Source: Dehalococcoidia bacterium (GTDB taxonomy: Bacteria; Chloroflexota; Dehalococcoidia; Lucifugimonadales; SHYT01). From it: a stretch of 64,000 bases of DNA. The position numbers were made by a program, and so were the translations under genes. Location of the stretch: positions 14,764-78,763 of the forward strand of contig SHYT01000008.1 in the NCBI GenBank assembly GCA_009692665.1, given 5' to 3'. How positions within the stretch are numbered: position 1 is the stretch's first letter; each line of letters starts with the position of its first letter. Below, in pieces: positions 4,908-49,603 of this stretch. The notes below the pieces were generated by a model that was not told where the DNA came from, did no database searches, and worked only from the letters and a program-made list of their open reading frames with translations.

Positions 4908-5151
4908 CCACGGACGGGACGGGAATCACGCGTAGCAAGACTCCCCAGCGTTGCCCAACAAACCTCTCGGCTTCAGTTATATGGGCCATGTACTTGGTAT
5001 AAGCTGAAAAGTGAGGCATTCCGTGAACAAACTCAGTGCAATACAATCCATACCAATACCGCACGGAAATAGGCTGGCATGATCTGATTATTCCCGCACA
5101 ATTCTGAGCTTTTGTGATACGTTGCATATACTAATCGCTGGAGAGGGAAGT

Positions 5152-6162: not shown

Positions 6163-6230
6163 TCCTCTGGATTTGGTCCCTGAACTAGAGATCGTGCAGC
6201 GCAAAATAACCGGGAAGGAGACTTAACGGT

Positions 6231-7439: not shown

Positions 7440-7514
7440 GCATCAGTCAATCAAGGGAAAACCAGGTAGGGACGGTTCGCACGAGCCAGCGCGCCAGGAT
7501 AAAGGAGATGTGTG

Positions 7515-8822
7515 ATGCCACAAGCGCTTGAGGGCATTCGCGTACTCGACTTGGGCATTGCCTGGGCGGGTGCCCATTGCACAAAAATACTGGCGGACAT
7601 GGGCGCCCAGGTGATTCGTATTGAATCCCCCACCGAGCCAAATCTGCGCGGCCCAGCACGCCCTGCACCTGGCTTTGGCATGTACCCTAAGAATGATCCT
7701 GGGCCGCGTCCTTGGAACCGCGCTGGTGGGTTCAATGAGCGCAACCGCAATAAGGTAGGCATCTGTCTTGACTTGGGAACTGAAGAAGGCCAGAAGATTT
7801 TCCATCGCCTTGTGGCCATTAGCGATGTGCTAGTGGAAAACTATAGCTCCCGTGTCGTGGCCAAGCTGGGCTTCGGCTACAAAGTGCTCCAGCCCGTCAA
7901 TCCCTCCCTCATTCTGCTGTCTATGCCCGGCATTGGTCGAGAAGGCCCCATGCGAGACAATGTTTCCTATGGCCCCACGCTTGAACAGATGTCTGGTGCT
8001 GCGTCCATTGAGGGCTACGTGGATGGTCCGCCTCAGCTCTCAGGCGCCCTCTACCCTGACCCGACAAGCGGCATCCTAGGCGCGGGGGCTATTTTGGCAG
8101 CGCTCGAACGCCGCCGCCGCACGGGGCAGGGTGCCTACATAGAGATGCCTCAGCTTGAGACAACTGTAGGGTTGATCGGCGAAGTGTTCTTGGACTACCA
8201 GATGAATGCTCGAAAGCCACGGCGGACTGGCAATACACGCGCCAGTGCGGCCCCCCATGACGCATTCCCCTGCCTTCCCTCTGCTGGGCCTGACGGCGCC
8301 GAACAAGAGGGCTGGGTCGCTATTTCCGTGTCCAGTGACCAGGTGTTCCAGCATCTGTGCGCGGTCATCGGTCGACCAGAACTGGCGGCCGATAGCCGGT
8401 TCTCCACGCCAGCTGCCCGCCATGAACGTGAAGAGGAATTGGCGGAGATCATTTCCGCTTGGACAAAGACACAGCCGCAACGCGCGGCAATGGAAACCCT
8501 CCAGGGAGCCGGAGTGCCTGCCGGCGCCTTACTCTCCGCGCCAGAACTGCTCAGCGATCCCCACCTGACCGAACGCCACTTCTTTGAGATCAGCCATCAC
8601 CCTGAAGCTGGTAGCTTCCCGGTCCCCGGGGTGCAATTTAAGCTCTCCGCCACGCCGGGCAGCGTGCGCACCCCTGCTCCTACGCTCGGGCAGCACAACG
8701 GGTGGGTTCTGAGCGAACTGCTAGGCTTTTCATCCGCGGAGATAGCTTCTCTGAATGCAAGGCGGATTGTTACCACGATTCCTACAGACGCGGTGACGGA
8801 GCCAGGAGCACCTAAGGGCTGA
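7515..8822 (+). CDS. Family III CoA-transferase (CaiB/BaiF)
   Basis: IRVLDLGIAWAGAHCTKILADMGAQVIRIESP and NERNRNKVGICLDL match the family. ATG 7515 is preceded by AAGGAG; GTG 7512 is an alternative start. Confidence 0.85.
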   Translation: MPQALEGIRVLDLGIAWAGAHCTKILADMGAQVIRIESPTEPNLRGPARPAPGFGMYPKNDPGPRPWNRAGGFNERNRNKVGICLDLGTEEGQKIFHRLVAISDVLVENYSSRVVAKLGFGYKVLQPVNPSLILLSMPGIGREGPMRDNVSYGPTLEQMSGAASIEGYVDGPPQLSGALYPDPTSGILGAGAILAALERRRRTGQGAYIEMPQLETTVGLIGEVFLDYQMNARKPRRTGNTRASAAPHDAFPCLPSAGPDGAEQEGWVAISVSSDQVFQHLCAVIGRPELAADSRFSTPAARHEREEELAEIISAWTKTQPQRAAMETLQGAGVPAGALLSAPELLSDPHLTERHFFEISHHPEAGSFPVPGVQFKLSATPGSVRTPAPTLGQHNGWVLSELLGFSSAEIASLNARRIVTTIPTDAVTEPGAPKG

Positions 8823-19481: not shown

Positions 19482-19752
19482 CAAGACTCCAAGTGGCGAA
19501 AGCACCCAGGTTGAGAAGATCAGTCGGCTGAATTATATGGCCCATAGCGTTCAAATGGGCCGGCTATCTTCCAGGAAACCGTGCCCCGTTCACCTGCACT
19601 GTAGTCACGCATGGTAGAATCGGGACATACTGTCAGGACGCAGTTCGGAGCGGCCATCCGCATCACATCTGGCGAGAGTAGTGGTAGCAACGAGCACCTC
19701 TGATACGACCTGTTACCACGGTTATCCTACATTGCAGAAGGAGGCATCCACA

Positions 19753-22146
19753 ATGGTTCAGCAGGCAAAAGAGAAAGCCAAGTATAAAGTCATCGGCACC
19801 AGGCCAATCCGCCATGATGGCGTGGACAAGGTAACAGGGCGTGCCCAGTATGGCGCAGACATCCGGCCTACTGGGCTCCTGTACGCCAAGATGCTCCGCA
19901 GCCCGCACGCGCACGCGCGCATCAAGAAGATAGACGTCAGCCGAGCCTTGGCCCACCCGGGAGTGCGCGCGGTGGTCACGTCCGCGGACCTGGCAGAGCA
20001 ACCGCCCCGCATCGCAGACTTGGGCGAGGGCTCATTTACGAACATGGGATTCCTGTGCATGAACGTCCTCGCGCGCGGAAAGGTCCTGTTCAAAGGCCAC
20101 GCGGTAGCCGCTGTGGCCGCCATCAACGCCCATGTTGCAGAAGAAGCCGTAGGGCTGATTGACGTGGAATACGAGGTGCTTCCTGTCGTTTTGGATGGGC
20201 TGGAGGCCATGAAGCCGGACGCGCCCTTGCTGCACGAGCGTCTCGCAAGCCTTTCCAACCCCAATGTCCGCCCCGGCGGCCTTATGGACGAGAGCGATAA
20301 GCGGAAAGGCAGCAACGTCGCCAACCACTTCGTCTTTGAGATTGGCGATATCGCTAAGGGTTTTGCGCAGGCGTCTATCGTTGTAGAGCGCTGGTACAAG
20401 GTCTCAGCGGCCCATCAGGGGTACATTGAGCCGCTCTCCGCAACGGCCAAATGGAATCCGGACAGCTCGCTCACCATCTGGTGCAGCAGCCAGGGCCACT
20501 TCACTATCCGGGAGCAGACTGCCAAGCTCCTCGGCCTGCCGGTATCCAAGGTCAAAGTAGTCCCAATGGAAATCGGCGGCGGGTTCGGTGCAAAAACCCA
20601 GGTCTTCCTGGAACCCGTTGTCGCCCTCCTCTCCAAAAAGTCTGGCCATCCGGTCAAGATGACTATCAACCGCACGGAGGTCTTTGAGGCCATCGGTCCT
20701 ACGTCCGGCGGCTACGTTCGTGCCAAGATGGGCGTCACCACGGAAGGCCGCATCATTGCCGCGGATGCCACCCTGGTCTACGAGGCTGGCGCGTTCCCAG
20801 GTTCTCCCGTCAGCGGCGGCGCGCAGTGCCTCCTCGGCCCGTACGACATCCCGAACGCGCGCGTTGAGGGATACGACGTCGTGGTAAACAAGCCCAAAGT
20901 CACCGCCTATCGCGCCCCCGGCGCGCCCAGCGGTGCCTTCGCGGCCGAGTCTCTAATAGATGAAATCGCACAGCAGCTCAAGATGGACCCCATAGACTTC
21001 CGGTTAATGAACTCCGCCAAAGAAGGTACGCGCAGGGTGAGCGGTCCCGTCTTCGGCAGCGTCGGCTTTGTAGAGGTGCTGAAGGCCGCCAAAGCGCACC
21101 CGCATTGGAAGGCCCCGCTTACTGGCAAGAACCGTGGGCGCGGTGTGGCTGCTGGGTTCTGGCACAACGGTGCCGGGCCCGCCAGCGCTACGGTCAGTGT
21201 CAACGCGGATGGCACGGTCAACCTCGTGGAAGGCTCGCCGGACATCGGAGGCAGCCGCGCTACCGCTGCTATGCAGGTGGCTGAGGTGCTGGGCTTGCGC
21301 GCGGAAGACGTTCGGCCCCAGGTGGCGGACACCGAGTCCATTGGCTTCACGTCTACCACCGGCGGCAGCGGCGCAACCTTCAAGACCGGCTGGGCCTCCC
21401 ATGACGCCGCCCAAGAGGTGAAGCAGCAAATGCTGGCCCGCGCCGCTACCATCTGGAATGTGAAACCTGACGATCTTAAGTACGAGGGAGGGGTGATCTC
21501 CCACAAGTCGGATCCCGCCCTCCGCATGCCCTTCCGTGACCTGGCGGCCAGGCTGAATGACACCGGCGGCCCCATTGCTGGCCGTGGCGCCGTGAACCCA
21601 CGTGGTGTAGGCGCGGCCCTCTCCGTCAACATCGCGGACGTTGAGGTTGACCCGGACACCGGCAAGACAACTGTCCTGCGCTATACCGCAATTCAGGACG
21701 TCGGTACCGCCATCCACCCAAGTTACGTGGAGGGCCAAATGCAAGGTGGCGCCGTCCAGGGCATCGGCTGGGCATTGACGGAAGAGTTCTATTTCAGCGA
21801 CAAGGGCCAGATGATGAACTCTTCGTTCTTGGACTACCGCATGCCTACCGCGCTGGACATCCCCATGATCGATACGGTCGTCGTCGAGGTGCCCAACCCA
21901 GGCCACCCATTCGGAGTGCGCGGCGTCGGCGAAGTCTGCATCGTGCCTCCGCTGGCGGCCATCGGCAACGCAATCCACCGCGCTACTGGCGTTCGCATGC
22001 ATACCCTGCCCATGAGCCCAAACAATCTTCAGCGGGCAATCGCTAAGAAAGGCGATGATGTCCACTGGACGGTTCCTACCAGCAACGGCGCGTCGCAGTC
22101 CATGAAAGCCGCCGTAGACGCCGAAGGTATCGAGCGCCATGAGTAA
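19753..22146 (+). CDS. Xanthine dehydrogenase/aldehyde oxidase-family molybdopterin-binding large subunit (L1)
   Basis: IGTRPIRHDGVDKVTGRAQYGAD N-terminus, AYRAPGAP, and the C-terminal RGVGEVCIVPPLAAIGNAI Glu loop. ATG 19753 follows GAAGGAGG. Confidence 0.9.
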   Translation: MVQQAKEKAKYKVIGTRPIRHDGVDKVTGRAQYGADIRPTGLLYAKMLRSPHAHARIKKIDVSRALAHPGVRAVVTSADLAEQPPRIADLGEGSFTNMGFLCMNVLARGKVLFKGHAVAAVAAINAHVAEEAVGLIDVEYEVLPVVLDGLEAMKPDAPLLHERLASLSNPNVRPGGLMDESDKRKGSNVANHFVFEIGDIAKGFAQASIVVERWYKVSAAHQGYIEPLSATAKWNPDSSLTIWCSSQGHFTIREQTAKLLGLPVSKVKVVPMEIGGGFGAKTQVFLEPVVALLSKKSGHPVKMTINRTEVFEAIGPTSGGYVRAKMGVTTEGRIIAADATLVYEAGAFPGSPVSGGAQCLLGPYDIPNARVEGYDVVVNKPKVTAYRAPGAPSGAFAAESLIDEIAQQLKMDPIDFRLMNSAKEGTRRVSGPVFGSVGFVEVLKAAKAHPHWKAPLTGKNRGRGVAAGFWHNGAGPASATVSVNADGTVNLVEGSPDIGGSRATAAMQVAEVLGLRAEDVRPQVADTESIGFTSTTGGSGATFKTGWASHDAAQEVKQQMLARAATIWNVKPDDLKYEGGVISHKSDPALRMPFRDLAARLNDTGGPIAGRGAVNPRGVGAALSVNIADVEVDPDTGKTTVLRYTAIQDVGTAIHPSYVEGQMQGGAVQGIGWALTEEFYFSDKGQMMNSSFLDYRMPTALDIPMIDTVVVEVPNPGHPFGVRGVGEVCIVPPLAAIGNAIHRATGVRMHTLPMSPNNLQRAIAKKGDDVHWTVPTSNGASQSMKAAVDAEGIERHE

Positions 22147-23263: not shown

Positions 23264-25588
23264 ATGACAACTACCTCTGGTCGCACAAATACCCCTGCCA
23301 CCCAATACAAAGTCGTCGGCACAAGGCCAATTCGCCACGATGGAGCGGATAAAGTAACAGGGCGCGCTCGGTATGGCCTAGACTTCAACGTGGTAGGTCT
23401 GCTGCATGGGAAAATCCTTCGTAGCCCACACGTACATGCCAGGATCAAGTCCATTGACACCAGCGCAGCCGAAAAGTTGCCAGGGGTTAAGGCGGTAGTC
23501 ACAGCGCGTGATTTCCCCGCCAACCCGAAAGGCCAACCCATCGATTTTGCGGAAGCGGGCGCCGACGTCCGCGTACTAGCCGAAAATATCATGGCTGGCC
23601 GAGTGGTCTTGTACCAGGGCCATGCGGTTGCAGCAGTCGCCGCTACCAACGAGCATATTGCGGAAGAAGCCCTGGGTCTCATCAAGGTAGAGTACGAAGT
23701 ATTGCCTGCATTGCTGGACGTGCGGGAATCCATGAAACCGGATGCGCCTCTTATCCACGAAAAGCTGACTACATTTTTTACAAAGGACCGGCAGGGTAGA
23801 GGCGAGAACACCGGCGTCAAGAGCAACATCGCCACCCACTTGCAGTTTAAGCGCGGTGACCTCGCCACTGGCTTCAAAGAAGCCCACGTCGTCGTGGAAC
23901 GAGAGTTCACAACCTCCATGGTGCATCAGGGCTATATCGAGCCCTACGTCTCTACAGGTCAGTGGGGGAAAGACGGGCGTATCACTGTTTGGACGAGCAC
24001 ACAGAATCCGTTTGGCATACGGGCTTCCACTGCCGCAATCCTTGGAGTGCCTGAGTCCACAGTTAAGGTCGTCTCCATGGAAATTGGCGGCGGGTTCGGT
24101 GGCAAGCAACCCGCGTACCTGGATCCCGTGGCAGCCATGTTGTCCAAGAAGAGCGGTCGTCCGGTCAAGATCGTCATGACGCGCAAAGAAGTGTTTGATA
24201 GCACTGGCCCTGCCTCCGGCTCGTACCTGCGTTGCAAAATCGGCGCCACAAAGGACGGGCGGATCACTGCGGCCGAACTGTATTTGGCGTACGAGGCTGG
24301 TGCATTTCCAGGTTCACCAATCGCTGGCGGCGCAATGAGTAGCTTTGGCCCGTACAAAGTGGAAAACATGATGGTTGAAGGCTACGATGTGGTCGTCAAC
24401 AAGCCCAAAGTGCAGGCCTACCGTGCCCCCGGGCAACCACAGACAAACTTCGCTGTTGAGTCGGTAGTCGACGAGTTAGCTCAGAAGCTGGGTATAGATC
24501 CCCTGGAGTTTCGTATAAAGAACGCCACAGACGAGGGAGACCTGATGCCGAGTGGCATGGTGTTCCCTCCGATGGGTCTGAAGCAATTAGAAGAAGCAAT
24601 GAAGAACCACGATCACTATAAAACGCCATTGACTGGTCCCAATCGTGGTCGTGGGATTGCAGTGGGGTATCGTTTCAACGGTGGGGGAGTCTCCTCTGCG
24701 ACAATCAATGTAAACGACGATGGTACAGTCGCGCTGGTTACCGGATCAGTGGATATTGGAGGAACGCGAACATCTGTCGCGATGCAGGCGGCCGAAGTGC
24801 TTGGGCTTCGTGCAGAGGATGTCACCCCAACTGTGGTTGACACCGATTCGATTGGGTGGACCGGCACAACCGCCGGTAGCCGGGTTACTTTTGATACGGG
24901 CTTAGCCGCCATTACGACTGCGGAAGAAGTGAAGCGGCTTATGATCGCGCGGGCTGCCAAGATCTGGGAAGTACCGCCGGCGGAGGTTGCTTTTAAAGAC
25001 GGCGTCTTCACCTCCTTGAAGAATCCCAACGATAAGCTTACCTTCAAGCAATTGGCTGCTAGATTGCGAGCCACTGGCGGTCCTGTCACTGCTTCAGCAA
25101 TCAATGGCTCCACAGGCGTTGGTCCAATCTTCGCCGGCAATATCATAGACGTAGAGGTAGATCCCGAAACTGGGAAGGTTCAAATCTTGCGGTGCACAGC
25201 ATTCATGGACGCAGGCAAGGCCGTCCATCCCAGCTACGTAGAAGGCCAACTTCAAGGTGGTACTGCACAGGGAATTGGTTGGGCCTTAAACGAGGAGTAC
25301 TTCCTCACCAAGGAAGGTGGTATGGCCAATTCCACGTTCCTGGACTACCGCATGCCAACGGCGCTGGATTTGCCCCTGATAGATACGGTGCTTATTGAGG
25401 TGCCAAATCCACGGCATCCGTTTGGACTGCGTGGCGTCGGGGAGGTTCCCATTGTGCCGCCGCCAGCTGCTCTTGCAAATGCCATCGCACGGGCGACCGG
25501 AGCGCGGCTTACCAAGCTTCCCATGAAACCTGGCACTATTTGGGAAGCAGTAGAAGCACACAAGGCAGCCACCAAAACCAAGAAGTAG
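23264..25588 (+). CDS. Xanthine dehydrogenase/aldehyde oxidase-family molybdopterin-binding large subunit (L2, paralog of L1)
   Basis: VGTRPIRHDGADKVTGRARYG, AYRAPGQP and RGVGEVPIVPPPAALANAI are co-linear with L1 over the whole length. Confidence 0.9.
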   Translation: MTTTSGRTNTPATQYKVVGTRPIRHDGADKVTGRARYGLDFNVVGLLHGKILRSPHVHARIKSIDTSAAEKLPGVKAVVTARDFPANPKGQPIDFAEAGADVRVLAENIMAGRVVLYQGHAVAAVAATNEHIAEEALGLIKVEYEVLPALLDVRESMKPDAPLIHEKLTTFFTKDRQGRGENTGVKSNIATHLQFKRGDLATGFKEAHVVVEREFTTSMVHQGYIEPYVSTGQWGKDGRITVWTSTQNPFGIRASTAAILGVPESTVKVVSMEIGGGFGGKQPAYLDPVAAMLSKKSGRPVKIVMTRKEVFDSTGPASGSYLRCKIGATKDGRITAAELYLAYEAGAFPGSPIAGGAMSSFGPYKVENMMVEGYDVVVNKPKVQAYRAPGQPQTNFAVESVVDELAQKLGIDPLEFRIKNATDEGDLMPSGMVFPPMGLKQLEEAMKNHDHYKTPLTGPNRGRGIAVGYRFNGGGVSSATINVNDDGTVALVTGSVDIGGTRTSVAMQAAEVLGLRAEDVTPTVVDTDSIGWTGTTAGSRVTFDTGLAAITTAEEVKRLMIARAAKIWEVPPAEVAFKDGVFTSLKNPNDKLTFKQLAARLRATGGPVTASAINGSTGVGPIFAGNIIDVEVDPETGKVQILRCTAFMDAGKAVHPSYVEGQLQGGTAQGIGWALNEEYFLTKEGGMANSTFLDYRMPTALDLPLIDTVLIEVPNPRHPFGLRGVGEVPIVPPPAALANAIARATGARLTKLPMKPGTIWEAVEAHKAATKTKK

Positions 25589-27806: not shown

Positions 27807-29075
27807 ATGTTCATCATGCATTTCATGGAAGAAGCCTGGCAAGATGAGAAGTCTGGCTGGGTGGGCAGCAACACTAGCGACCTCCAGATCAGTAATAGCC
27901 TGTACGACCCCGTGCAGGCAAATAAGCTCTACCATCGGTACATAGACGAGAACCTCTTCTGTGAAGAGATGGGGTTTGATGGGCTCATGCTCAATGAGCA
28001 CCATAGCGCTCCTTTCTGTATGCAGGGCGTTACAAACGTCCAGCTCTCTATTCTGGCCCACGCCACTAAGAAGATTAAGCTAGTCCCGCTGGGAAACATC
28101 CTCCCGGCTTGGGATGACCCTATGTGGCTCGCCGAACAGCTAGCTATGATCGATGTGATTTCTGGCGGCCGCTTGGTCTCCGGCTGGGTGCGGGGTGGTG
28201 GCCGAGAACATGTGGTGCATAACACGCATCCGCCGTCCAACTGGGAGCGCTTCCAAGAGGCGCACGACCTCATCATCAAGGCCTGGACAACCCCAGGCCC
28301 CTTTCGCTGGGAGGGCAAGCATTACCAGTACCGCTATGTGAATCCTTGGGTTGTCCCTCTCCAGAAACCTCATCCTCCCATTTGGATTCCTGGGTCCGTG
28401 AGCCGCGCCACGGTCAATTGGGCGGCTAAGAACGGATACCCATACGTTATTCTTGGTGCAGAGCTGGAAGCGACAAAGAGCACATTTGCGTACTACCATC
28501 AGACGGCGGCGGAGTATGGGTTCAAAACGGGGACCCAGCACAACGGGGAACTCATCAAGGTTCACTGTGAGGAGACGGAAGAGAAGGCTGACGAGGCCGG
28601 ACGGAAGTTTCTGGGAGGGGTGAACAACCCTTTCCTCCTCGGAAACGAGGGAACTGTGCGCTCGAATATTACCGCGCTTCCTGGACTATCACCTAGGAGG
28701 GCCGAAGAAAGAATCGAAACTCGCGGCACTGCGCCGGTTGGTCGGGGTGGTGATGCCACTACTGGTAATTTGCGAGCCACATATGAAGAGCAATCCGCAA
28801 AATACCTGATCATCAGCGGCACACCCAAAACCGTTATTACCAGGGTGAAACACGTGATGGAGCAGACGAGGCCCGGAACACTCCTGCTCTGGGATGGTGA
28901 CGGGGCGATGACACACGAGGATCACATGCGCAGCCTGAAGCTCATGGGTAAGGAAGTGCTGCCTGCATTGCGTGACTATGCGAAAGAACTGGGCATTGTT
29001 GGCCCGTTTGATGTGGACCCGGTTGTTGGGATGACCCGCGGTTTGGTCTCAGGTATGGCAACTCCAACTCCATAA
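27807..29075 (+). CDS. Luciferase-like (LLM) flavin-dependent monooxygenase, subfamily A copy 2
   Basis: Co-linear with 9048-10307 and identical at most positions by eye. Same LNEHHS and IDVISGGRLVSGWVRG motifs. Confidence 0.85.
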   Translation: MFIMHFMEEAWQDEKSGWVGSNTSDLQISNSLYDPVQANKLYHRYIDENLFCEEMGFDGLMLNEHHSAPFCMQGVTNVQLSILAHATKKIKLVPLGNILPAWDDPMWLAEQLAMIDVISGGRLVSGWVRGGGREHVVHNTHPPSNWERFQEAHDLIIKAWTTPGPFRWEGKHYQYRYVNPWVVPLQKPHPPIWIPGSVSRATVNWAAKNGYPYVILGAELEATKSTFAYYHQTAAEYGFKTGTQHNGELIKVHCEETEEKADEAGRKFLGGVNNPFLLGNEGTVRSNITALPGLSPRRAEERIETRGTAPVGRGGDATTGNLRATYEEQSAKYLIISGTPKTVITRVKHVMEQTRPGTLLLWDGDGAMTHEDHMRSLKLMGKEVLPALRDYAKELGIVGPFDVDPVVGMTRGLVSGMATPTP

Positions 29076-29147: not shown

Positions 29148-29987
29148 TTAGAGGCCCTGAAAGCGCGGAGGGCGCTCCTCAAAGGCGGCTCGCATTCCCT
29201 CGCGGTGGTCTTGCGAGCGCATAAGCTCCCGCATGGCATCGTGTTCCCGAAGGATCTGCTGTTCCAGCGTGGACTCCAGCCCAGCGTAGACTTGCTGCTT
29301 CAAGGCGGCCACCGCAAGCGGAGCGCTCTTTACAAGTTCGTTCGCCATCTCCCGTGCGGCTGCCAATACCTTCTCCTTCGGTACCGCTTGATTGACCATG
29401 CCCATTTCATAAGCCTCGCGGCCAGTGACGAACCTGCCGGTCAGCATCAGATCCATAGCCCTTGGAAGCCCGATCATGCGCGTCAAAAGAAGTGAAGACC
29501 CGTGTTCAGCTGCTAGTCCCAGGCGAGGCCATCGTGTGCCCATACGGGCATCTTCAGCAGCTATCCGCAGATCGCAGGCAAGGGCGAGTCCAAACCCCGC
29601 ACCAACCGCAACACCATTTATAGCTCCGATGACTGGTTTTGGGATACTTCGAAAGAGGGCTGGATAGGAGTTGTCCAGCCACCGCGAGCTATCGGCGGCT
29701 TCGCCTCCTGCAGGCTCTTGTCTGCCTTCCTCTGCGGACCGTCGTAGCGAAGATGTATCGCCTCCTGAAGAGAATCCCCGCCCAGCGCCAGTGATAATAA
29801 TCACGCGAACGCTAGGATCTATCTTGACCGACTGGATGGCGGCATCGAAGCCCCGCCGGAGCGCCTGGCCGAGAGGGTTCAGCCTCTTCGGGTCGTTCAA
29901 GGTTATTGTGGCGATGGCATCACTAATATTGACAAGAACTGGCGCCTCGACAGAATCTGTGTGTTCTGTCATGGATTCCACCCCCAT
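29148..29987 (-). CDS. Enoyl-CoA hydratase/isomerase (crotonase fold)
   Basis: ITLNDPKRLNPL and IITGAGRGFSSGGD match the fold. Alternative ATG at 29972 (MTEHTD) follows a GGGGGTGGA run. Confidence 0.85.
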   Translation of the reverse strand: MGVESMTEHTDSVEAPVLVNISDAIATITLNDPKRLNPLGQALRRGFDAAIQSVKIDPSVRVIIITGAGRGFSSGGDTSSLRRSAEEGRQEPAGGEAADSSRWLDNSYPALFRSIPKPVIGAINGVAVGAGFGLALACDLRIAAEDARMGTRWPRLGLAAEHGSSLLLTRMIGLPRAMDLMLTGRFVTGREAYEMGMVNQAVPKEKVLAAAREMANELVKSAPLAVAALKQQVYAGLESTLEQQILREHDAMRELMRSQDHREGMRAAFEERPPRFQGL

Positions 29988-30050
29988 GTACCGAAATCTC
30001 TATAAACGGCCGTCCAGTAATACAACCTTGAAAAGTGCTCTAGTCGCCAA

Positions 30051-30605
30051 TTACAGCTTGACGTCTTTCAGGTGAATGATATGAGCAGAGCGGTGACCTG
30101 GCTGAAGCTCCAATATGCCCACTGTGCCCAATTGTGGCATCAAGTTGTGCGGCAATGTTGGGCTGCCCGGATTTATCATAAACACGCCATCTTTTTCCAC
30201 CATGAGTTCCACATGGGTGTCTCCGCACACAACAATCTCGACGCGCCGGCCAAAGTTAAACTGCATGAGCCCGTTGAGATTATTCCGCCACGGTGGCTCG
30301 TCTGGAGTGGGAAAACCGTGGGTCATCCCAATAGTAAACCCCATAAGTTCGAGAACGTGTGCCTCTTTAACCCGAGGGTCGTCAGGGACACCCGGCCGGT
30401 TTTTGTTCAGTGATGAATAGTGGTCACCATTGCCGCGGGCACCAAGCACAGGCGCGATGCGCCCAAGCCTATCCAGCACGTCGATAACGTGCATATCGCC
30501 GGCATGCAAGATGAGGTCTACGCCCTCGAAGACTTTAAACACCTGTAACGGAATGTCTGGTCCCGACTCAGGAATGTGTGTGTCGGAGATAAGGCCAATG
30601 CGCAT
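30051..30605 (-). CDS. Metallophosphoesterase (YfcE/MJ0936-like)
   Basis: MRIGLISDTHIP, LHAGDM and GNGD metal-binding motifs. ATG 30605 follows GGGGAGG; the longest ORF starts at TTG 30623. Confidence 0.8.
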   Translation of the reverse strand: MRIGLISDTHIPESGPDIPLQVFKVFEGVDLILHAGDMHVIDVLDRLGRIAPVLGARGNGDHYSSLNKNRPGVPDDPRVKEAHVLELMGFTIGMTHGFPTPDEPPWRNNLNGLMQFNFGRRVEIVVCGDTHVELMVEKDGVFMINPGSPTLPHNLMPQLGTVGILELQPGHRSAHIIHLKDVKL

Positions 30606-30640
30606 AAGACCTCCCCAAAACAATCATGACTGAAAAGCCC

Positions 30641-31138
30641 TCAGCTACCCTTAGGCCGTCCCTCGAACTTCCACACATTAGCTGGTTGTTGCGTACTGAG
30701 CCGCCAACGGGGCATCTGCTTGCCGTCCGCCGAGATTTTTTCCCAGTACAGTTCCACCTTGGAGTTAATGCCAGCCTGGTCATCGCCTTCGTCAATGACA
30801 CCCATGACACGGACGGGTAGTCCCGTCACACCACGCATATCATCTAGATCAATGACAGCAGAAAGGTACGGGGTAGCTTCCGCAAACGCACCCAAAATAG
30901 GTTGTGTAACGACGATGAACGAGTAAATAGCACCCTTACCACTGCTTTCCACCCAGCTCGTCTTTTCGAAGTTCCCGCAACTGGAGCATCCTATTGCTCC
31001 AGGCGGCCACCACCGGTGACCGCAAACATCACAGCTTCTGACCATGAGCTTGCCTTCCTTGGTGAAATCCCACCAAGGGGCGGCATCATAGTCTGGGTTA
31101 ATCGTGAACTTGGACCAGTTGATTTTGGGACTCCCCAT
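30641..31138 (-). CDS. DUF35-type zinc-ribbon/OB-fold protein
   Basis: CDVCGHRWWPP...CSSCG four-Cys ribbon followed by an OB-like C-terminus. ATG 31138 follows GGAGAGGG. Lies 11 nt downstream of the thiolase-like gene. Confidence 0.8.
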   Translation of the reverse strand: MGSPKINWSKFTINPDYDAAPWWDFTKEGKLMVRSCDVCGHRWWPPGAIGCSSCGNFEKTSWVESSGKGAIYSFIVVTQPILGAFAEATPYLSAVIDLDDMRGVTGLPVRVMGVIDEGDDQAGINSKVELYWEKISADGKQMPRWRLSTQQPANVWKFEGRPKGS

Positions 31139-31149
31139 TTTGCCCTCTC

Positions 31150-32391
31150 CTAGTTGGCTGTGGCGAACTGGCTGAGTACGAGAGAACTGCTTTGGGTTGG
31201 TGACCCCCAGGCGCTGCAAAACCCAACATCATGCTTCTTTACTTGGCGGCATCCAGCTTTGCGATCATACGTGTGGATGCCTTCCTCCCAGTTCGGACAC
31301 GCATCATCAGCCCGTCCGCGGAGTTGGCGGGTCATTTCAATAACCATTTGTATCCCGTGACTGTAGCCTTCGGACAGGTGCGACCCGGAAGTGTTCACAG
31401 GAAGGTCACCGTCGATGAGACCACGCCCTTCCTGATACCAAAAGCCAGCCTCACCCGGCTTCACAAAGCCATATCCTTCCATTTGGAGTAGGGGAGTGAT
31501 AGTAAACGCGTCGTAGAAAGACGCGACGTTGATATCGCTGCGCGTGACGCCGGACATCCCAAACGCGCGGTTGCGTCCCCAGTTGCTGCCATGCCAGTAA
31601 ATCGGTGTGTGCAGCCGGCCTGCGTTGTAGGAGGGGCTTTCCGACATAGTGCGGGCGGTGCCCCCCAATACGAACACTGGTGGGTGCCGCAGGTCATACG
31701 AATCTTCTCTTCGCATGAGCACCATGGCACAAGAGACGTCCCGTTCCAAGCAGCAGTCGTAAAGACGGAAGGGCTTGGAAACCCAGCGAGCATTGTAATA
31801 GTCTTCCAACGTCAGCGGCTGTTTATAGAAGACCGCCTTCGGGTTGAGATTGGCGTGGTAGCGGTGGGTTAGCGCGACGGCCGCAAGCTGGCGGGTGCTC
31901 ACGCCGTAGTCGTGCATGTACCGCATAGCAGCCATGCCAAAATTTTGCGCCGGGGTGGTCACCCCCACCATTGGGCCTTGGCCGTCAGAAGTGACTACGG
32001 TGTTTGGCTGAGGGCCGGAGAGCGCTTGCCCTCCCATGCGCCGTCCGGTGCGCCCGCGCATAGACCGAAAAATGACTATTGCGCGGCAATAGCCTCCGGC
32101 AAGGAGACCCGCTGCGTGGGCGACGAGCGCTTCGCTGCTGGAACCACCGCCCATGATATCCACGGCGTAGTTAAGCCGCATACCGAGAGACTGTGCCATA
32201 TCATTTGAGCTATGCGAGTCTCCGGTCTGATAGCTGGTCATACCATCAATGTCGCTGAGCCTGAGGCCTGCGTCAGCCACCGCCTTCTTGATAGCCTCCA
32301 ATCCGAGCGAAAGTGTCGTCCGCTTCGCGTCCCGATAGAACTCCGTTTGCCCTACGCCTACAATGGCGGCTTTCCCTGTTAGCGCTCCCAC
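31150..32391 (-). CDS. SCP-x/thiolase-like protein apparently lacking the nucleophilic Cys (aldolase/lyase-like?)
   Basis: AAIVGVGQTEF N-terminus and NTSGSHLSEG...QLRG C-terminus are SCPx-thiolase-like. IMGGGSSSEAL aligns to the [11 protein letters not shown] nucleophile segment (Cys->Gly) and EGYSHG to KGHPLG (His->Tyr). GTG 32391 follows GAGGAGG; the longest ORF starts at 32628. Confidence 0.75.
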   Translation of the reverse strand: MGALTGKAAIVGVGQTEFYRDAKRTTLSLGLEAIKKAVADAGLRLSDIDGMTSYQTGDSHSSNDMAQSLGMRLNYAVDIMGGGSSSEALVAHAAGLLAGGYCRAIVIFRSMRGRTGRRMGGQALSGPQPNTVVTSDGQGPMVGVTTPAQNFGMAAMRYMHDYGVSTRQLAAVALTHRYHANLNPKAVFYKQPLTLEDYYNARWVSKPFRLYDCCLERDVSCAMVLMRREDSYDLRHPPVFVLGGTARTMSESPSYNAGRLHTPIYWHGSNWGRNRAFGMSGVTRSDINVASFYDAFTITPLLQMEGYGFVKPGEAGFWYQEGRGLIDGDLPVNTSGSHLSEGYSHGIQMVIEMTRQLRGRADDACPNWEEGIHTYDRKAGCRQVKKHDVGFCSAWGSPTQSSSLVLSQFATAN

Positions 32392-32684
32392 CGATATCCT
32401 CCTCAGAACACACAACACACACAACTTGACATCTATCCGGCGTTCTGTGTGGCACACTTTAACTGAGAATCTACCGGTTGGCAACAAACCGTGTCCTCCA
32501 AGCCTGACTGCATTAGTTTCTTCCCATTGCCCATCAACTGGGCTATGGCTGTGGTTTTGGGCATCAAAAAGACGCTGGTTCAAATACATGGAGCACATGG
32601 TGCTATAGTGGGTGCGCTGCAGGAGCACCCTGGCAGAAGCGTATTTCTCGTGGGAAGCTCGCTAGGAGTCAGGAGGAGGCGATT

Positions 32685-36828: not shown

Positions 36829-36925
36829 ATCCAGTGAAACTAGAATGGCTTATTATACGAAGAAATTGCGACGACGCCGTTACACATCGCTACTTTGCCG
36901 GGTGCTTTGATTGGAGTGTGAAGCT

Positions 36926-38014
36926 ATGGACTGGTTAAGTGAACCCTGCCGGCAAAACATACCGGGGCTTGACTACGATTTGGAAGCCATGCGAAAACAG
37001 TTCCTTGGACTGGAAACGAAGCCAGTTCAAGGACGGTATCCAGTCGAATACGATCCGATTCGTCGCCACTGCCATATGACCGGTGACATGAATCCTCTTT
37101 TTCTTGACCCAACCTATGGTGCTAAGAGTAAATATGGGGCTGTTATCGTCCCGCCGCCGCTAGTTGCATATTTCGGGGTTCCAGGTGTGTGGCCTCCTAG
37201 ATCGCTGGAAGAACCACGACTTCCGGCAATACCTATGCCGGGTAATCGGTCCATCGCAATGATGGTGGAGACTGAGTGGCATAAGCCCGTGAAAGTGGGT
37301 GACCGGCTCAGTAGCATGAGCCGCTACGCCGATCTCTACTTCCTTTCTATCCGACTGGACTGGTGCGCCGTTTGGGTAACCACACAGAATATCCTTTCTA
37401 ACCAGCACGGTGATGCCGTCGCCACTGTTATGCAGATGTCACTGCGCCATCGCGGCGTTGACCAAGTACCCGACGGCCAGAAGGGAGCCCCAAATGTGGC
37501 GCAGGCGCCGGTACCTCCAATGCCGCAGCCCATTGGACAAACTAGGCCCCTGGTCACCCCAAAGCCCCAAGCGGAGCAAATCTACTGGGAAGACGTTAAA
37601 GAAGGCGATTTTCTTCCCGTTCTCGAATATCCCATCACCGAGACGCGTATTGTTGAGCAGGTAAGTGGGTCCCAGGACTTTTATGCTGTCCACCATGATC
37701 GTGCATTTGCCAGGGCGGCAGGACACAGCGATATCTTTGTGAACAATGGGTTCATGCGGGGCTGCCTAGCTCGCGTACTCACCGACTGGATAGGAGATGA
37801 AGGCTGGCTGCGCAAGCTCCGAGTAGAAATGCGCCGCATGAATGGTCCTGGAGACCTATTGATTTGCACCGGAAAAGTAGTTCGCAAGTACGAAGACGGC
37901 GCCGAAAAAATCGTTGAATGCGAAGTCTGGGCTGAGAACGCGCGTGTAGGGGTTACCACTCCGTGCCGTGCGTGGGTGGCATTGCCAAGCCGTTCGGGCC
38001 AATCGCGCCATTAG
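36926..38014 (+). CDS. MaoC-like double hot-dog enoyl-CoA hydratase (N- and C-terminal hot-dog domains fused)
   Basis: The N-terminal half carries GDMNPLFLDP. The C-terminal half carries FYAVHHDRAFARAAGH (D-x-N-x-H-type hydratase motif region). ATG 36926; the longest ORF starts at TTG 36911. Confidence 0.8.
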   Translation: MDWLSEPCRQNIPGLDYDLEAMRKQFLGLETKPVQGRYPVEYDPIRRHCHMTGDMNPLFLDPTYGAKSKYGAVIVPPPLVAYFGVPGVWPPRSLEEPRLPAIPMPGNRSIAMMVETEWHKPVKVGDRLSSMSRYADLYFLSIRLDWCAVWVTTQNILSNQHGDAVATVMQMSLRHRGVDQVPDGQKGAPNVAQAPVPPMPQPIGQTRPLVTPKPQAEQIYWEDVKEGDFLPVLEYPITETRIVEQVSGSQDFYAVHHDRAFARAAGHSDIFVNNGFMRGCLARVLTDWIGDEGWLRKLRVEMRRMNGPGDLLICTGKVVRKYEDGAEKIVECEVWAENARVGVTTPCRAWVALPSRSGQSRH

Positions 38015-46199: not shown

Positions 46200-47387
46200 A
46201 TGGATCTGACTTATCCGCCTGAAGCAGAGGCGTTCCGCCAAGAGGTGATAGCCTGGCTACAGGCCAACTTGCCGTCAGGATGGGGCACCCCTCAATTCAA
46301 GCTGCCTGGCGACCCTAAGCAGCGGCGCGCATGGCATGTTGACTGGCACAGGAAGATGCATGCGGCTGGCTACGTCGGCCTGACGTGGCCCAAAGAATAC
46401 GGCGGCCAAGGCGCCGATCCTGTGATGAGTATGATGCTCAATGAGGAATTGACTCGGTTCGAGGCTCCGCAAGGGGCCAACGCGCTTGGCACGCGTATCG
46501 TTGGGCCAACCATCATCCAGTTTGGCAATGAAGAGCAGAAACGGGCCCACCTGTCCAAGATTCTGAGTGGCGAGGAAATGTGGTGTTTAGGAATGTCTGA
46601 GCCCGGCGCAGGCTCAGACCTCGCCTCCCTGCAGACCCGTGCCGTTGAAGAAGGTGATTTCTTTGTCGTCAACGGCCAAAAAGTGTGGACGTCTTCTGCC
46701 CACCTGGCAAATTACATTTACCTGTTGGTGCGGACGGATCCCACCGCTGAAAAACATCGGGGCATCAGCGTCCTGCTTGTTGACATGAAGACCCCAGGCA
46801 TCGTCGTGCGGCCGCTCAAGCAAATTACTGGCGAATCCGAATTCAATGAGGTCTTCCTCCAGGACGTTCGTGTCCCGCGCAGCAATCTCCTGGGCGAAAA
46901 GAACCAGGGGTGGCGCGTGATTATGGGTCAGTTAGGGTATGAGCGCTCCGGTGGTTCGCGTGGCATGAACTGCCAGCGGGCTTTAGAGGATTTGGTGCGG
47001 TTGGCAAGGAACACATATCGCAATGGCAAGCCAGCCAGTGAGGACCCAATCATCCGCAGAAAACTTGCTCAGCTTGCCATCGAGGTCAATATCGTTCGAC
47101 TAACTGATTACAAGGAGATGACCATCCAACTACAGGGAGGGCGCCCTGGCCCTGAGACATCCTTCGGCAAGCTGTTTTGGAGTGAGCTGAACCAGCGGCT
47201 CTCATCGGTAGGGGTGCAAATCTTGGGCTTAGAGGGTACTCTTAGCAAGCAATCCTCTGACGTAGTCAAGAACGGCGAATATCTTTACGCTTTTCTCCGT
47301 GCATATGGGAACACTATTGAAATGGGCACTTCGGAGATTCAGCGGAACATTATCGGGGAACGAGTATTAGGGCTGCCCCGCGGTTAA
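46200..47387 (+). CDS. Acyl-CoA dehydrogenase (FadE-type; C-terminus IEMGTSEIQRNIIGERVLGLP)
   Basis: ACAD N, middle and C domains are recognisable (GLTWPKEYGGQG, MSEPGAGSDLASL, GTSEIQRNII). Confidence 0.85.
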   Translation: MDLTYPPEAEAFRQEVIAWLQANLPSGWGTPQFKLPGDPKQRRAWHVDWHRKMHAAGYVGLTWPKEYGGQGADPVMSMMLNEELTRFEAPQGANALGTRIVGPTIIQFGNEEQKRAHLSKILSGEEMWCLGMSEPGAGSDLASLQTRAVEEGDFFVVNGQKVWTSSAHLANYIYLLVRTDPTAEKHRGISVLLVDMKTPGIVVRPLKQITGESEFNEVFLQDVRVPRSNLLGEKNQGWRVIMGQLGYERSGGSRGMNCQRALEDLVRLARNTYRNGKPASEDPIIRRKLAQLAIEVNIVRLTDYKEMTIQLQGGRPGPETSFGKLFWSELNQRLSSVGVQILGLEGTLSKQSSDVVKNGEYLYAFLRAYGNTIEMGTSEIQRNIIGERVLGLPRG

Positions 47388-47418: not shown

Positions 47419-48576
47419 ATGTTTTTTGACCTAACGGACGAACAGAAAGCTATTAAGAAAGCGGCAAGGGACATGCTGGAGATCGAATGTCCCAGGTCCT
47501 ACGTCCGCGCCATGATGGACGATGCCCGTGGGTATCAGCCGGAGCTTTGGAAGAAGATGGCGGATCTGGGCTGGATGGGCCTGGCTCTACCGGAACGCTA
47601 CGGTGGAGCAGGGCTGGAGTTCTTGTCGCTCACTGGTCTCATCGAAGAAATGGGGCGATTCTTGTTGCCAGGGCCTTTTGTCTCCACGGTTGTTGGTGGT
47701 GGACTAACACTGGCGGCGGCGGGCAGCCCTGTACAACAGGAGAGCATTCTGCCCAAGCTCGTCAGAGGAGACCTGCTGATGACGCTGGCCGTAGGCACAG
47801 ATCACGGCCGGTTGGATGCGGGGGGGGTACAGAATTCTGCAGTCCGGCAGGGAGACGGGTTTGTCTTGAATGGCATCGTTCGTTTGGTGCCGGACGCACA
47901 GACAGCAGACATAATTCTTCTTGCAGCCCGCACCAGCCAACAACATGAGGAAGGATTGACATTATTCCTTGTGGATGCGAAGGCCCCTGGACTGTCAGTG
48001 CATCCGCAGTACACTACCGATGGGCGCAAAGTCGCCAACTTGGAATTCTCTAGCGTTCGAGTGCCTTCCACCGCAGTGGTTGGGCGGGTAGATGGTGCCT
48101 GGCCGATAATAGCGGCAGCCCAGCGCCGGCTCACTCTATCTTTATGCGCGGAGGCTGTTGGGGGCGCAGGTATGGCTATGGAAATAAGTGTGGAATATGC
48201 CAAAACCCGAGTGGCATTCGGACGTCCCATTGGCATGTTCCAGGCGATTAAGCACAAGTGCGCCAACATGTTAGTGCAGGTTGAATCAGGACGGTTTCTA
48301 CTGTATTATGCGGCGTGGTTGCTGCAAGAAGGTGCTTCGGAGGCACCAGAGGCGGTGGCTGTGGCGAAGGCTTGGTGTGGCGATTCGTACACCAAAGTTG
48401 CTTCAGATGGTATCCAGGTGCATGGGGGGATTGGCATGACATGGGAACATGACATGCACCTGTTTCTCAAGCGCGCAAAGGTAATCGAATTGTCGTCGGG
48501 GGATTCTGATTACCACGCTGAGCACATCGCTAAGGAGCTCGAGCGCCGTGCAACGGCAATATCGAGTGCGAGATAG
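47419..48576 (+). CDS. Acyl-CoA dehydrogenase-fold protein (divergent; lacks the YEGT catalytic-base motif)
   Basis: ACAD-like throughout (ALPERYGGAG, FQAIKHKCANM), but the C-terminus reads VIELSSGDSDYHAEHIA instead of I-Y-E-G-T-S-E-I. Starts 31 nt after the preceding ACAD. Confidence 0.8.
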   Translation: MFFDLTDEQKAIKKAARDMLEIECPRSYVRAMMDDARGYQPELWKKMADLGWMGLALPERYGGAGLEFLSLTGLIEEMGRFLLPGPFVSTVVGGGLTLAAAGSPVQQESILPKLVRGDLLMTLAVGTDHGRLDAGGVQNSAVRQGDGFVLNGIVRLVPDAQTADIILLAARTSQQHEEGLTLFLVDAKAPGLSVHPQYTTDGRKVANLEFSSVRVPSTAVVGRVDGAWPIIAAAQRRLTLSLCAEAVGGAGMAMEISVEYAKTRVAFGRPIGMFQAIKHKCANMLVQVESGRFLLYYAAWLLQEGASEAPEAVAVAKAWCGDSYTKVASDGIQVHGGIGMTWEHDMHLFLKRAKVIELSSGDSDYHAEHIAKELERRATAISSAR

Positions 48577-48721: not shown

Positions 48722-49603
48722 GTGCAGGCATTTGAGTATGTAAGCGCAAAGTCGGTAGGGGAGGCGGTTGGCGTCCTGTCTCAGCATGGTGAAGGGGCTC
48801 GCCTTATGGCGGGTGGGACAGATGTATTGGTACAGCTCCGGGCAGGGCGGCGCCCTCAGGTCAAGGTGTTGGTCGATGTCAAAGGTATCGGCGAGCTCAA
48901 CGAGCTTTCCTACAATGACCGTCAGGGCCTTATCATCGGGGCTGCCGTGCCTTGCTATCGCATCTACGAAGATCCCACGGTCATTAAGAGGTATCCAGGC
49001 ATCGTGGACTCCGCCTCAATTATTGGAAGTGTTCAAATCCAGGGCCGCGCATCGTTGGGCGGCAATATCTGCAATGCTACGCCCAGTGCAGATGGCATTC
49101 CCCCGCTCATTGCGTTGGGCGCGGTGTGTATCATAGCTGGCCCAAACAATAGTCGGCGGGAACTGCCTTTGGAGCAATTGTTTGCTGGACCTGGCCGCAC
49201 GACACTGCAGAACGGAGAGATGCTTATCTCCGTCAGGGTGCCGCCGCCGCCAGCCAACTCTGGAGCGCAATATCTGCGCTTTACACCTCGCAACGAAATG
49301 GATATCGCTGTTGCTGGAGTTGGTGCAGCTATCACTTTGAATGCCGCAAAGAACACGTTCGTATCTGGGCGCGTGGTTCTGGCTGCCGTTGCGCCTATAC
49401 CGCTGTTGGTGCCTGCCGCGGGCCAGGCGTTGGCTGGCAAGCCGGTGAACGATGAGACCATTGGCAAAGCGGCGGAAGCTGCGGTAGCAGCAGCGGTTCC
49501 GATTACTGACATGCGTGGCACTATTGAATACCGCAAGCACCTGGTAGGGGTACTGACCCGCCGGGCTCTCCAAGGTGCAATTCAAAGGGCGAAGGGGGTA
49601 TAG
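48722..49603 (+). CDS. Molybdenum hydroxylase FAD-binding (medium, CoxM/XdhB-like) subunit
   Basis: FEYVSAKSVGEAVGVL...LMAGGTDVLVQLR and GGNICNATPSADG match the FAD_binding_5 pattern. GTG start after AGGAGGG. Confidence 0.85.
   Translation: MQAFEYVSAKSVGEAVGVLSQHGEGARLMAGGTDVLVQLRAGRRPQVKVLVDVKGIGELNELSYNDRQGLIIGAAVPCYRIYEDPTVIKRYPGIVDSASIIGSVQIQGRASLGGNICNATPSADGIPPLIALGAVCIIAGPNNSRRELPLEQLFAGPGRTTLQNGEMLISVRVPPPPANSGAQYLRFTPRNEMDIAVAGVGAAITLNAAKNTFVSGRVVLAAVAPIPLLVPAAGQALAGKPVNDETIGKAAEAAVAAAVPITDMRGTIEYRKHLVGVLTRRALQGAIQRAKGV

Follow-up and report, generated by a model that had tools for sequence, protein, structure and literature searches.

The locus and its genes

The window analysed here, a 64,000-nucleotide stretch of contig SHYT01000008.1, comes from a Dehalococcoidia metagenome-assembled genome (MAG) and carries on its minus strand, between positions 29148 and 32391, four tightly spaced open reading frames (ORFs), of which the first two, encoding a thiolase-like protein and a DUF35 protein, are the subject of this report. 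An initial annotation of the window had described the four-gene string, and all four ORFs are found where it had placed them, with gaps of 11, 35, and 63 nt in gene order. The first gene (31150-32391, minus strand) encodes the thiolase-like protein of 413 amino acids (MSP78916.1), which we propose to be the catalytic subunit of an Ltp2-type retro-aldolase. The second (30641-31138, minus strand) encodes the DUF35 protein of 165 amino acids (MSP78915.1; Pfam zf-ChsH2 and OB_ChsH2_C), the proposed obligatory partner subunit. They are followed on the same strand by genes for a YfcE-type metallophosphoesterase of 184 amino acids (30051-30605; Pfam Metallophos_2) and a crotonase-superfamily protein of 279 amino acids (29148-29987; Pfam ECH_1, 1.2e-55).

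The GTG start codon of the thiolase-like gene at 32391-32389 yields precisely the public 413-residue protein, and a Shine-Dalgarno-like GAGGAGG, read from the sequence, lies 6 nt 5' of it (32398-32404, minus strand). The public names of the four products are, in gene order, 'acetyl-CoA acetyltransferase', 'hypothetical protein', 'metallophosphoesterase', and 'enoyl-CoA hydratase/isomerase family protein'. In the first of these, Pfam recognizes Thiolase_C_1 (1.5e-31), while Thiolase_N stays below threshold (20.9 bits against a cutoff of 26.4). A promoter and terminator scan of the locus was uninformative, giving intragenic sites in numbers barely or not above those in shuffled sequence.

Catalytic positions of the thiolase-like protein

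To locate the catalytic columns, the protein was aligned with HMMER to two true thiolases, 7YVY from Pyrococcus and the zebrafish SCP2-thiolase 6HRV; a second alignment, made with MAFFT, comprises 115 sequences (110 full-length homologues and five references). Both place Gly83 opposite the nucleophilic Cys of 7YVY and 6HRV, Tyr293 opposite the His of the H-D-x-F motif, Ala295 opposite the acid/base Cys of the HDCF motif of SCP2-thiolase, and Tyr343 opposite the His of the G-H-P motif. The corresponding codons all lie on the minus strand: the GGT of Gly83 at 32143-32145, Tyr293-Asp294-Ala295 of the YDAF motif at 31507-31515 (Tyr293 at 31513-31515), and Tyr343-Ser344-His345 of the motif E-G-Y-S-H-G at 31357-31365 (Tyr343 at 31363-31365). 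The initial annotation had reported that the nucleophilic Cys is replaced by Gly, with a codon at about 32143-32145, and that the GHP His is replaced by Tyr; the Gly83 codon falls exactly there and the Tyr is Tyr343. In these alignments the window protein has neither a Cys at the nucleophile position nor a His in the GHP motif, and that observation therefore stands.

The replacements are fixed in the family. In the MAFFT alignment Gly83 is found in 110 of 110 members and Tyr293 and Tyr343 each in 109, with Ala295 and His345 each in 106 of 110. Gly also occupies the nucleophile column in TcLtp2, CtSal, and 4U4E (described below), where 7YVY and 6HRV have Cys. The residue set of an SCP2-type thiolase or acetyl-CoA acetyltransferase, a nucleophilic Cys, the His of an HDCF- or NEAF-type motif, the GHP His, and the acid/base Cys, is thus not found in the window protein, which has Gly83, Tyr293, Tyr343, and Ala295 instead.

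These columns bear directly on the public name of the protein, which implies an ordinary acetyl-CoA acetyltransferase or 3-ketoacyl-CoA thiolase working through an acyl-cysteine intermediate, like the archaeal DUF35-associated thiolases or BbsAB. The fold agrees with that name, as do scores of 240 bits with PRK06158, 118 bits with an archaeal thiolase, and 77 bits with BbsB; genuine thiolases are also accompanied by DUF35 proteins (6ESQ, 7PXP), and the family conserves several cysteines (Cys102, Cys213/214, Cys365, and Cys381). However, the nucleophilic Cys, both His, and the acid/base Cys are all replaced across the 110 homologues, all scores against NCBIfam thiolase models lie far below their cutoffs, and the Cys213/214 pair is also present in Ltp2, which is not a thiolase. 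CtSal shares the Gly at the nucleophile position and is reportedly incapable of thiolysis (PMC12329534). We therefore give almost no credence to an ordinary thiolase.

The loss of the entire thiolase catalytic set could also mean that the protein is a dead thiolase relic, retained as a scaffold or as a lipid- or acyl-CoA-binding 'lipid-transfer protein', a name that some of its relatives carry. That name is, however, also borne by Ltp2, an enzyme (PMC12329534), and Tyr293, Tyr343, Glu341, and His345 are each present in 106 to 110 of the 110 sequences across phyla, which is unexpected for a relic and makes this explanation highly improbable.

Resemblance to Ltp2

Among solved structures, the best sequence match to the window protein is 6OK1_A, the steroid side-chain aldolase Ltp2 of Thermomonospora curvata (TcLtp2; E = 1.2e-63), followed by 4U4E (2.8e-51) and Sal, 9MYR (4.8e-44); true thiolases follow at 1e-24 and weaker. 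A fold search with an AlphaFold model of moderate quality (mean pLDDT 71, pTM 0.78) likewise returned 6OK1 first (E = 1.3e-32, TM 0.79/0.85), then 4U4E and 9MYR. Of the NCBIfam models, PRK07855 (NF005892), the Ltp2 subfamily model named 'lipid-transfer protein', scores best; on it, a TcLtp2 fragment reaches 664 bits. A tblastn search of 72,556 plasmids yielded no characterized anchor, only matches of at most 38% identity with generic names ('transporter', 'thiolase').

The residue roles of TcLtp2 used here are those given in the Sal paper (PMC12329534). There, Tyr294 of the YDHF motif and Tyr344 were identified by mutagenesis as catalytic base and catalytic acid, respectively, a Gly replaces the thiolase nucleophile, and His296, mutation of which had a 14-fold effect, is proposed to contribute to the oxyanion hole. 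Tyr293 of the window protein corresponds to Tyr294 and Tyr343 to Tyr344, and Ala295 stands in the place of His296. Beyond these positions, Glu216, Glu341, and His345 are common to the family and nine Ltp2 orthologues and occur in neither reference thiolase; Arg109, Arg118, Gln149, and His179 are shared by the same two groups and missing from at least one reference thiolase. The initial annotation had recognized a thiolase-superfamily protein that lacks the catalytic cysteines and has tyrosines as in Ltp2, a description supported by the alignments and by the sequence and fold matches to 6OK1: in the HMM alignment against thiolases and Ltp2, Gly83, Tyr293, and Tyr343 match TcLtp2, not the thiolases.

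The related aldolase Sal solves the same problem with other residues, using Tyr302 and Cys304 and having Gln at the Tyr344 position (PMC12329534). This dyad is not found in the window protein, which is predicted from its residues to follow the catalytic solution of Ltp2 rather than that of Sal.

The DUF35 partner and its conservation

The DUF35 protein, whose gene starts 11 nt past the stop codon of the thiolase-like gene, comprises a rubredoxin-like zinc ribbon and an OB fold. Both Pfam domains score above their cutoffs (PF12172 zf-ChsH2, 24.2 against 23.2 bits; PF01796 OB_ChsH2_C, 45.8 against 27.1 bits), and the top matches in the PDB are 6OK1_B, ChsH2(DUF35) (E = 1.2e-10), and 9MYR_B, the DUF35 of Shy (E = 2.3e-10). 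The matches of the two window proteins to 6OK1 lie well above what chance would give. The four zinc-ribbon ligands, Cys36, Cys39, Cys51, and Cys54 (30977-31033, minus strand; codons verified), are kept in 59 to 60 of 60 aligned DUF35 partners.

Relatives of the thiolase-like protein were sought in one genome per species and are encoded at more than 560 loci, the best 80 of which supplied the neighbourhoods described here. Neighbour counts rest on phmmer; greedy stop-to-stop gene calls, noisy in high-GC loci owing to spurious antisense ORFs, were used qualitatively only. The 80 loci belong to Dehalococcoidia and other Chloroflexota, Binatia, Methylomirabilota/Rokubacteria, 'delta-/proteobacterial' MAGs, Acidimicrobiia, and Alphaproteobacteria. 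One, that of Reyranella aquatilis KCTC 52223, is from a cultured strain; its copy has the same motifs, GGG, YDAF, EGYTHG, and DDSCP and a DUF35 gene downstream. Overall, 70 of the 80 loci have a DUF35 gene no more than 4 kb from the thiolase-like one, nearly always immediately downstream and on the same strand, and two further loci stop at a contig edge. The pairing with a DUF35 protein, on which the initial annotation had built its proposal, is thus a conserved property of these loci. The same annotation had noted the non-actinobacterial setting, which is correct, as the host is a Dehalococcoidia MAG; aldolases of the Ltp2 and Sal types are already known outside the Actinobacteria (PMC12329534, PMC12502768). 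The aldolase of Comamonas testosteroni TA441 cannot do without its DUF35 domain, which also functions as a separate polypeptide (PMC12502768), and the unfused arrangement seen in the window is therefore plausible.

The arrangement varies at some loci. One (L013, 6758-9722) has a tandem of thiolase-like, thiolase-like, and DUF35 genes, and another (L035, 2166-5741) has two thiolase-like/DUF35 pairs in succession; L015 and L016 lack a DUF35 gene within 8 kb and have a small MaoC-like ORF immediately 5' of the thiolase-like gene.

Proposed reaction

Taken together, we consider it likely that the thiolase-like/DUF35 pair is a DUF35-dependent retro-aldolase misannotated as an acetyl-CoA acetyltransferase. 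By analogy, the two proteins would form an alpha2-beta2 heterotetramer, and the complex would cleave 3-hydroxyacyl-CoA by a retro-aldol reaction rather than 3-ketoacyl-CoA by thiolysis. In a mechanism whose steps are transferred from TcLtp2, Tyr293 would act as the base and take the proton of the beta-hydroxyl group, the bond between C-alpha and C-beta would break to give a ketone or aldehyde and an acyl-CoA enolate, and Tyr343 would act as the acid, protonating the enolate so that acetyl- or propionyl-CoA is released. The backbone of Gly83 would occupy the place of the thiolase nucleophile, and the zinc-ribbon/OB subunit would be needed for a stable, active enzyme and help to shape the substrate cleft.

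Enzymes of this kind serve pathways resembling beta-oxidation in which the beta-carbon is tertiary or sterically hindered and hence not oxidizable to a ketone, for example where a side chain is attached to a ring carbon. A beta-carbon that lacks a hydrogen or is buried in a ring blocks the dehydrogenase and thiolase steps, and a retro-aldolase is then needed. The steps upstream are likely to be dehydrogenation by a heteromeric acyl-CoA dehydrogenase (ACAD) and hydration by a MaoC-type fusion protein encoded at 36911-38014 in the window. Luciferase-like oxidoreductases, CaiB-type CoA-transferases, and crotonases abound in the host, which makes an alicyclic or branched acyl-CoA, and not necessarily a steroid, the probable substrate.

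Several observations weigh against the assignment as a retro-aldolase. The window protein shares only 33-35% of its residues with Ltp2, and its PRK07855 score, 302 bits, falls short of the 469-bit cutoff. His296 of TcLtp2, a His in nine of nine Ltp2 orthologues, is Ala295 here, and part of the Ltp2 mechanism is therefore not transferable unchanged; an invariant Glu87 and a Cys/His-bearing insert (both described below) could signal a different chemistry. The AlphaFold model, with a mean pLDDT of only 71, falls below 50 at residues 335-343 around Tyr343. At eight of the 80 loci (L014-L016, L018-L020, L025, and L027; mostly 'Proteobacteria' MAGs, with one Binataceae), a DUF35 gene is absent up to 8 kb from the thiolase-like gene. 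The genes for the putative hydratase and ACADs are 4.5-15 kb away and not part of the aldolase operon, and a Pfam survey of the window ORFs found no steroid ring-degradation genes (KshA, KstD, and Hsa types).

A clade apart from Ltp2

The low identity to Ltp2 takes on meaning beside that of Ltp2 orthologues from many actinobacterial genera, which are 80-96% identical to TcLtp2; the window protein falls short of both orthologue-level identity and the NF005892 cutoff. In a tree built by neighbour-joining, a coarse method for a sister relation, its family is monophyletic and neighbours the Ltp2 clade, with Sal, 4U4E, and the thiolases placed elsewhere. Near the active site the family departs from Ltp2 by an invariant Glu87 in place of Cys, by Asp78 in place of Arg, and by Arg247 in place of Gly. 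It also has its own C-terminal stretch at residues 362-383 (DDxCPxWxEGxHTYDxxxGCRQ; 31243-31308, minus strand), within which an insert of about 19 residues, with invariant Cys365, Pro366, His373, Asp376, and Cys381, corresponds to a gap in all nine Ltp2 orthologues aligned. AlphaFold confidence is low in the insert, which may hold a structural metal or serve as an interface. Judged by these sequence comparisons, the window protein is not an Ltp2 orthologue but a member of a distinct sister clade. The likeness to Ltp2 put forward in the initial annotation holds for residues and fold and does not extend to orthology.

A true, steroid-cleaving Ltp2 would nonetheless fit several features: Ltp2 is the nearest characterized relative, the Tyr pair is kept, homologues of the ChsH1/ChsH2-type hydratase and of a ChsE-like ACAD are encoded in the window, and an attack on sterol- or hopanoid-like molecules has been suggested for SAR202 Dehalococcoidia (PMC5395668). 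Set against these are the gap between 33-35% identity and the at least 80% found among orthologues, the shortfall in score, the separate clade, and the change of His296 to Ala. Furthermore, the DUF35 protein is not fused to a ChsH2-type hydratase, and the Pfam survey of the window found neither an igr-like operon nor steroid-ring genes. Ltp2 orthology is thus very unlikely.

The residues peculiar to the clade raise the further question of whether the same scaffold supports a different acyl-CoA chemistry, such as decarboxylation, a synthetic aldol or Claisen-type condensation, or acyl transfer like that of PhlABC/MucABC. Thiolase-like/DUF35 pairings do serve several chemistries, with decarboxylation weakly seen for TbSLP, and the invariant Glu87, Asp78, and Arg247, the insert with its conserved Cys and His, and the missing oxyanion-hole His would all be compatible with such a change. 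Against acyl transfer, PhlC-type acyltransferases retain the nucleophilic Cys (a C88S mutant is listed) and need the KAS-III-like PhlA, whereas the window has neither a nucleophile Cys in the protein nor an adjacent KAS-III-like gene, and the match to 5M3K_C is weak (E = 1.8e-14). More generally, the strictest conservation in the family falls on the two defining residues of Ltp2 catalysis, and the neighbouring genes (ACAD, CoA-transferases, and hydratases) are catabolic. We regard a different chemistry as rather unlikely, and retain a retro-aldol cleavage as the preferred assignment.

A more specific proposal, which we offer tentatively and hold to be less likely than not, is that the clade as a whole consists of widespread, unrecognized DUF35-dependent retro-aldolases acting on non-steroid 3-hydroxyacyl-CoAs with a tertiary or ring-attached carbon, derived from terpenoid-like alicyclic acids or from those resembling carboxyl-rich alicyclic molecules (CRAM), with a modified active site (Glu87, no His296) and possibly a metal-binding Cys/His insert.

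Neighbouring genes

The metallophosphoesterase scores 86.7 bits, above the cutoff, with the NCBIfam model TIGR00040 (yfcE). A homologue lies beside the pair in only one of the 80 loci, that of a marine relative with 72% identity (L003), and the protein was dropped as a functional partner; it looks like a lineage-specific passenger. Other neighbours within 4 kb include luciferase-like proteins (20 of 80 loci), short-chain dehydrogenases (15), crotonases (14), and MaoC proteins (4). The luciferase-like count was not taken as an enrichment, as such genes are very dense in these genomes, with six among the scanned ORFs of the window. No neighbour besides DUF35 is comparably conserved, so the two genes, rather than all four of the string, form the unit: the operon of the initial annotation is present as a string of genes, and only its thiolase-like/DUF35 part is conserved as a unit.

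The window crotonase departs from the canonical pattern. Where the hydratase 5ZAI has its two catalytic Glu, which we take to be the equivalents of Glu144 and Glu164 of rat enoyl-CoA hydratase (ECH), the window protein has Gly and Trp in the alignment, and aligned to PaaG (4FZW_C), it has Glu at the catalytic Asp of 'IPDCGG'; the mycobacterial EchA12_1 (3QRE) also has Glu at that position. It is probably an isomerase-like or other non-canonical member of the superfamily, not a simple hydratase. At other loci, the crotonases encoded close to the pair are heterogeneous, each retaining a different one of the two glutamates. With both glutamates missing here and a mixed set elsewhere, a role for the crotonase as the dedicated hydratase of the aldolase was abandoned.

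Where Pfam-labelled gene calls exist, the neighbourhood of the pair is one of acyl-CoA catabolism. A homologue with 58% identity (L081) lies in the series ECH, acetyl-CoA-hydrolase-type CoA-transferase, ACAD, thiolase-like, DUF35, and ECH, and three with 76% identity (L083-L085) lie beside CaiB-type CoA-transferases, an amidohydrolase, and a double hot-dog MaoC protein of 385 amino acids.

At three Dehalococcoidia loci (L069, L072, and L076; positions of about 11.0-12.8 kb in each), the thiolase-like protein is only about 43% identical to that of the window. These loci retain a close orthologue (about 570 bits) of the luciferase-like gene at 27807-29075, placed, as in the window, some 2 kb downstream from the pair and in convergent orientation. 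The link between this gene and the pair may be specific, for example as an oxygenase or oxidoreductase acting upstream of the aldolase step.

Candidate hydratase, acyl-CoA dehydrogenases, and the wider window

The fused double hot-dog MaoC-type protein of 367 amino acids (36911-38014, plus strand; Pfam FAS1_DH_region and MaoC) has as its best solved relatives Mycobacterium tuberculosis ChsH2 for the N-terminal half and ChsH1 for the C-terminal half (4WNB, 4W78), with weak E values of 1e-7 and 2e-4. The fusion thus joins in one chain what is a heteromer in the steroid side-chain hydratase, and it has no DUF35 domain. Proteins of the same architecture are encoded a few kb from the pair in the closest relatives (L001, L017, L040, and L083-L085), and this fusion appears a more likely hydratase than the window crotonase. 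Its exact sequence is missing from the protein collection; the public gene call may start elsewhere.

Two adjacent ACAD genes lie at 46200-47387 and 47419-48576 (both plus strand), identified by PDB sequence matches. The first matches Tcur3483 (6WY9; E = 3e-59) and 4X28_A (1e-57), and the second matches Tcur3481 (6WY8_A; 2e-42, second best) and 4X28_D (7e-37), so that the pair corresponds to both subunits of the T. curvata enzyme and to chains A and D of that of M. tuberculosis. This suggests an alpha2-beta2 ACAD for bulky acyl-CoAs, and a link to the aldolase is possible. Relatives of all three actinobacterial igr enzyme classes (ACAD, MaoC hydratase, and aldolase with DUF35) are thus found in the window, dispersed.

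Elsewhere in the window, three tandem CaiB-type CoA-transferase genes occupy 3717-8822 (plus strand), with a cyclase-like gene between the first two, and the scanned ORFs include the six luciferase-like genes (at 9048, 12538, 27807, 40508, 44998, and 56339), five crotonases in all, three SBP_bac_5 binding proteins, and several MFS transporters. Two molybdenum hydroxylase large subunits of the xanthine dehydrogenase/CO dehydrogenase family are encoded at 19681-22146 and 23264-25588 (plus strand), and a separate FAD-binding subunit gene lies more than 20 kb from them at 48722-49603 (plus strand). A similar gene repertoire in SAR202 Dehalococcoidia has been linked to the oxidation of recalcitrant alicyclic organic matter (PMC5395668). 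We infer that the MAG may be a SAR202 member. Neither thiolase-like aldolases nor DUF35 appear in two SAR202 genome papers, and a full-text literature search yielded no such link.

Significance

Thiolase-fold aldolases with DUF35 partners are already known in Actinobacteria and Proteobacteria, and the window pair is an extension of that knowledge, not a surprise. What is new, as far as sequence comparison can tell, is a large sister clade with a free-standing DUF35 protein, an altered active-site surround, and a family-specific insert, occurring in phyla where its genes uniformly carry thiolase annotation. Hundreds to thousands of environmental genes labelled 'acetyl-CoA acetyltransferase', 'thiolase', or 'lipid-transfer protein' are, by their sequences, not thiolases, and metabolic reconstructions that count members of this clade as beta-oxidation thiolases are therefore wrong at that point.

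If the clade members are retro-aldolases, they would be markers of pathways for acyl-CoAs with a tertiary or ring-bound beta-carbon. Such structures have been proposed for recalcitrant marine dissolved organic matter, which is thought to be oxidized by SAR202-type Dehalococcoidia (PMC5395668). Dehalococcoidia (including SAR202-like members), Binatia, and Methylomirabilota would then gain a C-C cleavage that is impossible for ordinary beta-oxidation. We know of no cleavage enzyme that has been named for the SAR202 step, and the pair would be a concrete candidate for side-chain or ring C-C cleavage in these presumed degraders of refractory matter. Steroid aldolases of the thiolase fold are already of biocatalytic interest (PMC12329534), and a sister clade of unfused, two-gene enzymes would broaden the range of substrates.

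Comparison with known systems

The closest known system is Ltp2-ChsH2(DUF35), represented by T. curvata 6OK1, M. tuberculosis Rv3540c, and PRK07855. It shares with the window pair the thiolase fold, the Gly at the nucleophile position, the two catalytic tyrosines (Tyr294/Tyr344 in TcLtp2, Tyr293/Tyr343 here), the Glu216, Glu341, Arg109, Arg118, and His179 of the window protein, and a DUF35 partner with a Cys4 zinc ribbon and OB fold. Both proteins also have a Y-x-H-G motif, which is Y-[IL]-H-G in Ltp2 (E-A-Y-I-H-G in TcLtp2) and lies in E-G-Y-S-H-G in the window protein. The two systems differ in that the window protein has YDAF, without His296, where Ltp2 has YDHF, and Glu87 where Ltp2 has Cys. 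The window DUF35 protein is encoded by its own gene, whereas that of Ltp2 is the C-terminal domain of a MaoC hydratase, and neither the phyla of the hosts nor the surrounding genes are those of steroid catabolism.

Sal-Shy(DUF35), the bile-acid side-chain aldolase of Comamonas testosteroni (9MYR), is likewise a retro-aldolase of this fold with the Gly, the Tyr of a YDxx motif, and a DUF35 partner. Sal is 31% identical to the window protein (E = 4.8e-44) and has YDCY, with Tyr302 and Cys304, and Gln at the second Tyr position, where the window protein has Ala (for Cys304) and Tyr; its DUF35 partner is part of a fusion with the hydratase Shy and has a Cys3His-type ribbon.

The putative thiolase 4U4E of Sphaerobacter thermophilus (PRK06158) is, like the window protein, from the Chloroflexota. 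Gly stands in its nucleophile column, it has a YDSF motif, and in the MAFFT alignment its Y-T-H motif falls on Tyr343 and His345; HMMER and MAFFT differ in where they put this second Tyr. It belongs to another NCBIfam subfamily, lacks the C-terminal insert, and offers no functional anchor. By its residues 4U4E, and by extension PRK06158, which NCBI names 'acetyl-CoA acetyltransferase', may perhaps be of the aldolase type too. The SCP2-type and archaeal thiolases (6HRV, 7YVY, 6ESQ, and BbsAB, 7PXP) resemble the window pair in overall fold and in their habit of pairing with DUF35 proteins, but they keep the Cys nucleophile and the His of the HDCF and GHP motifs, none of which is present in the window protein.

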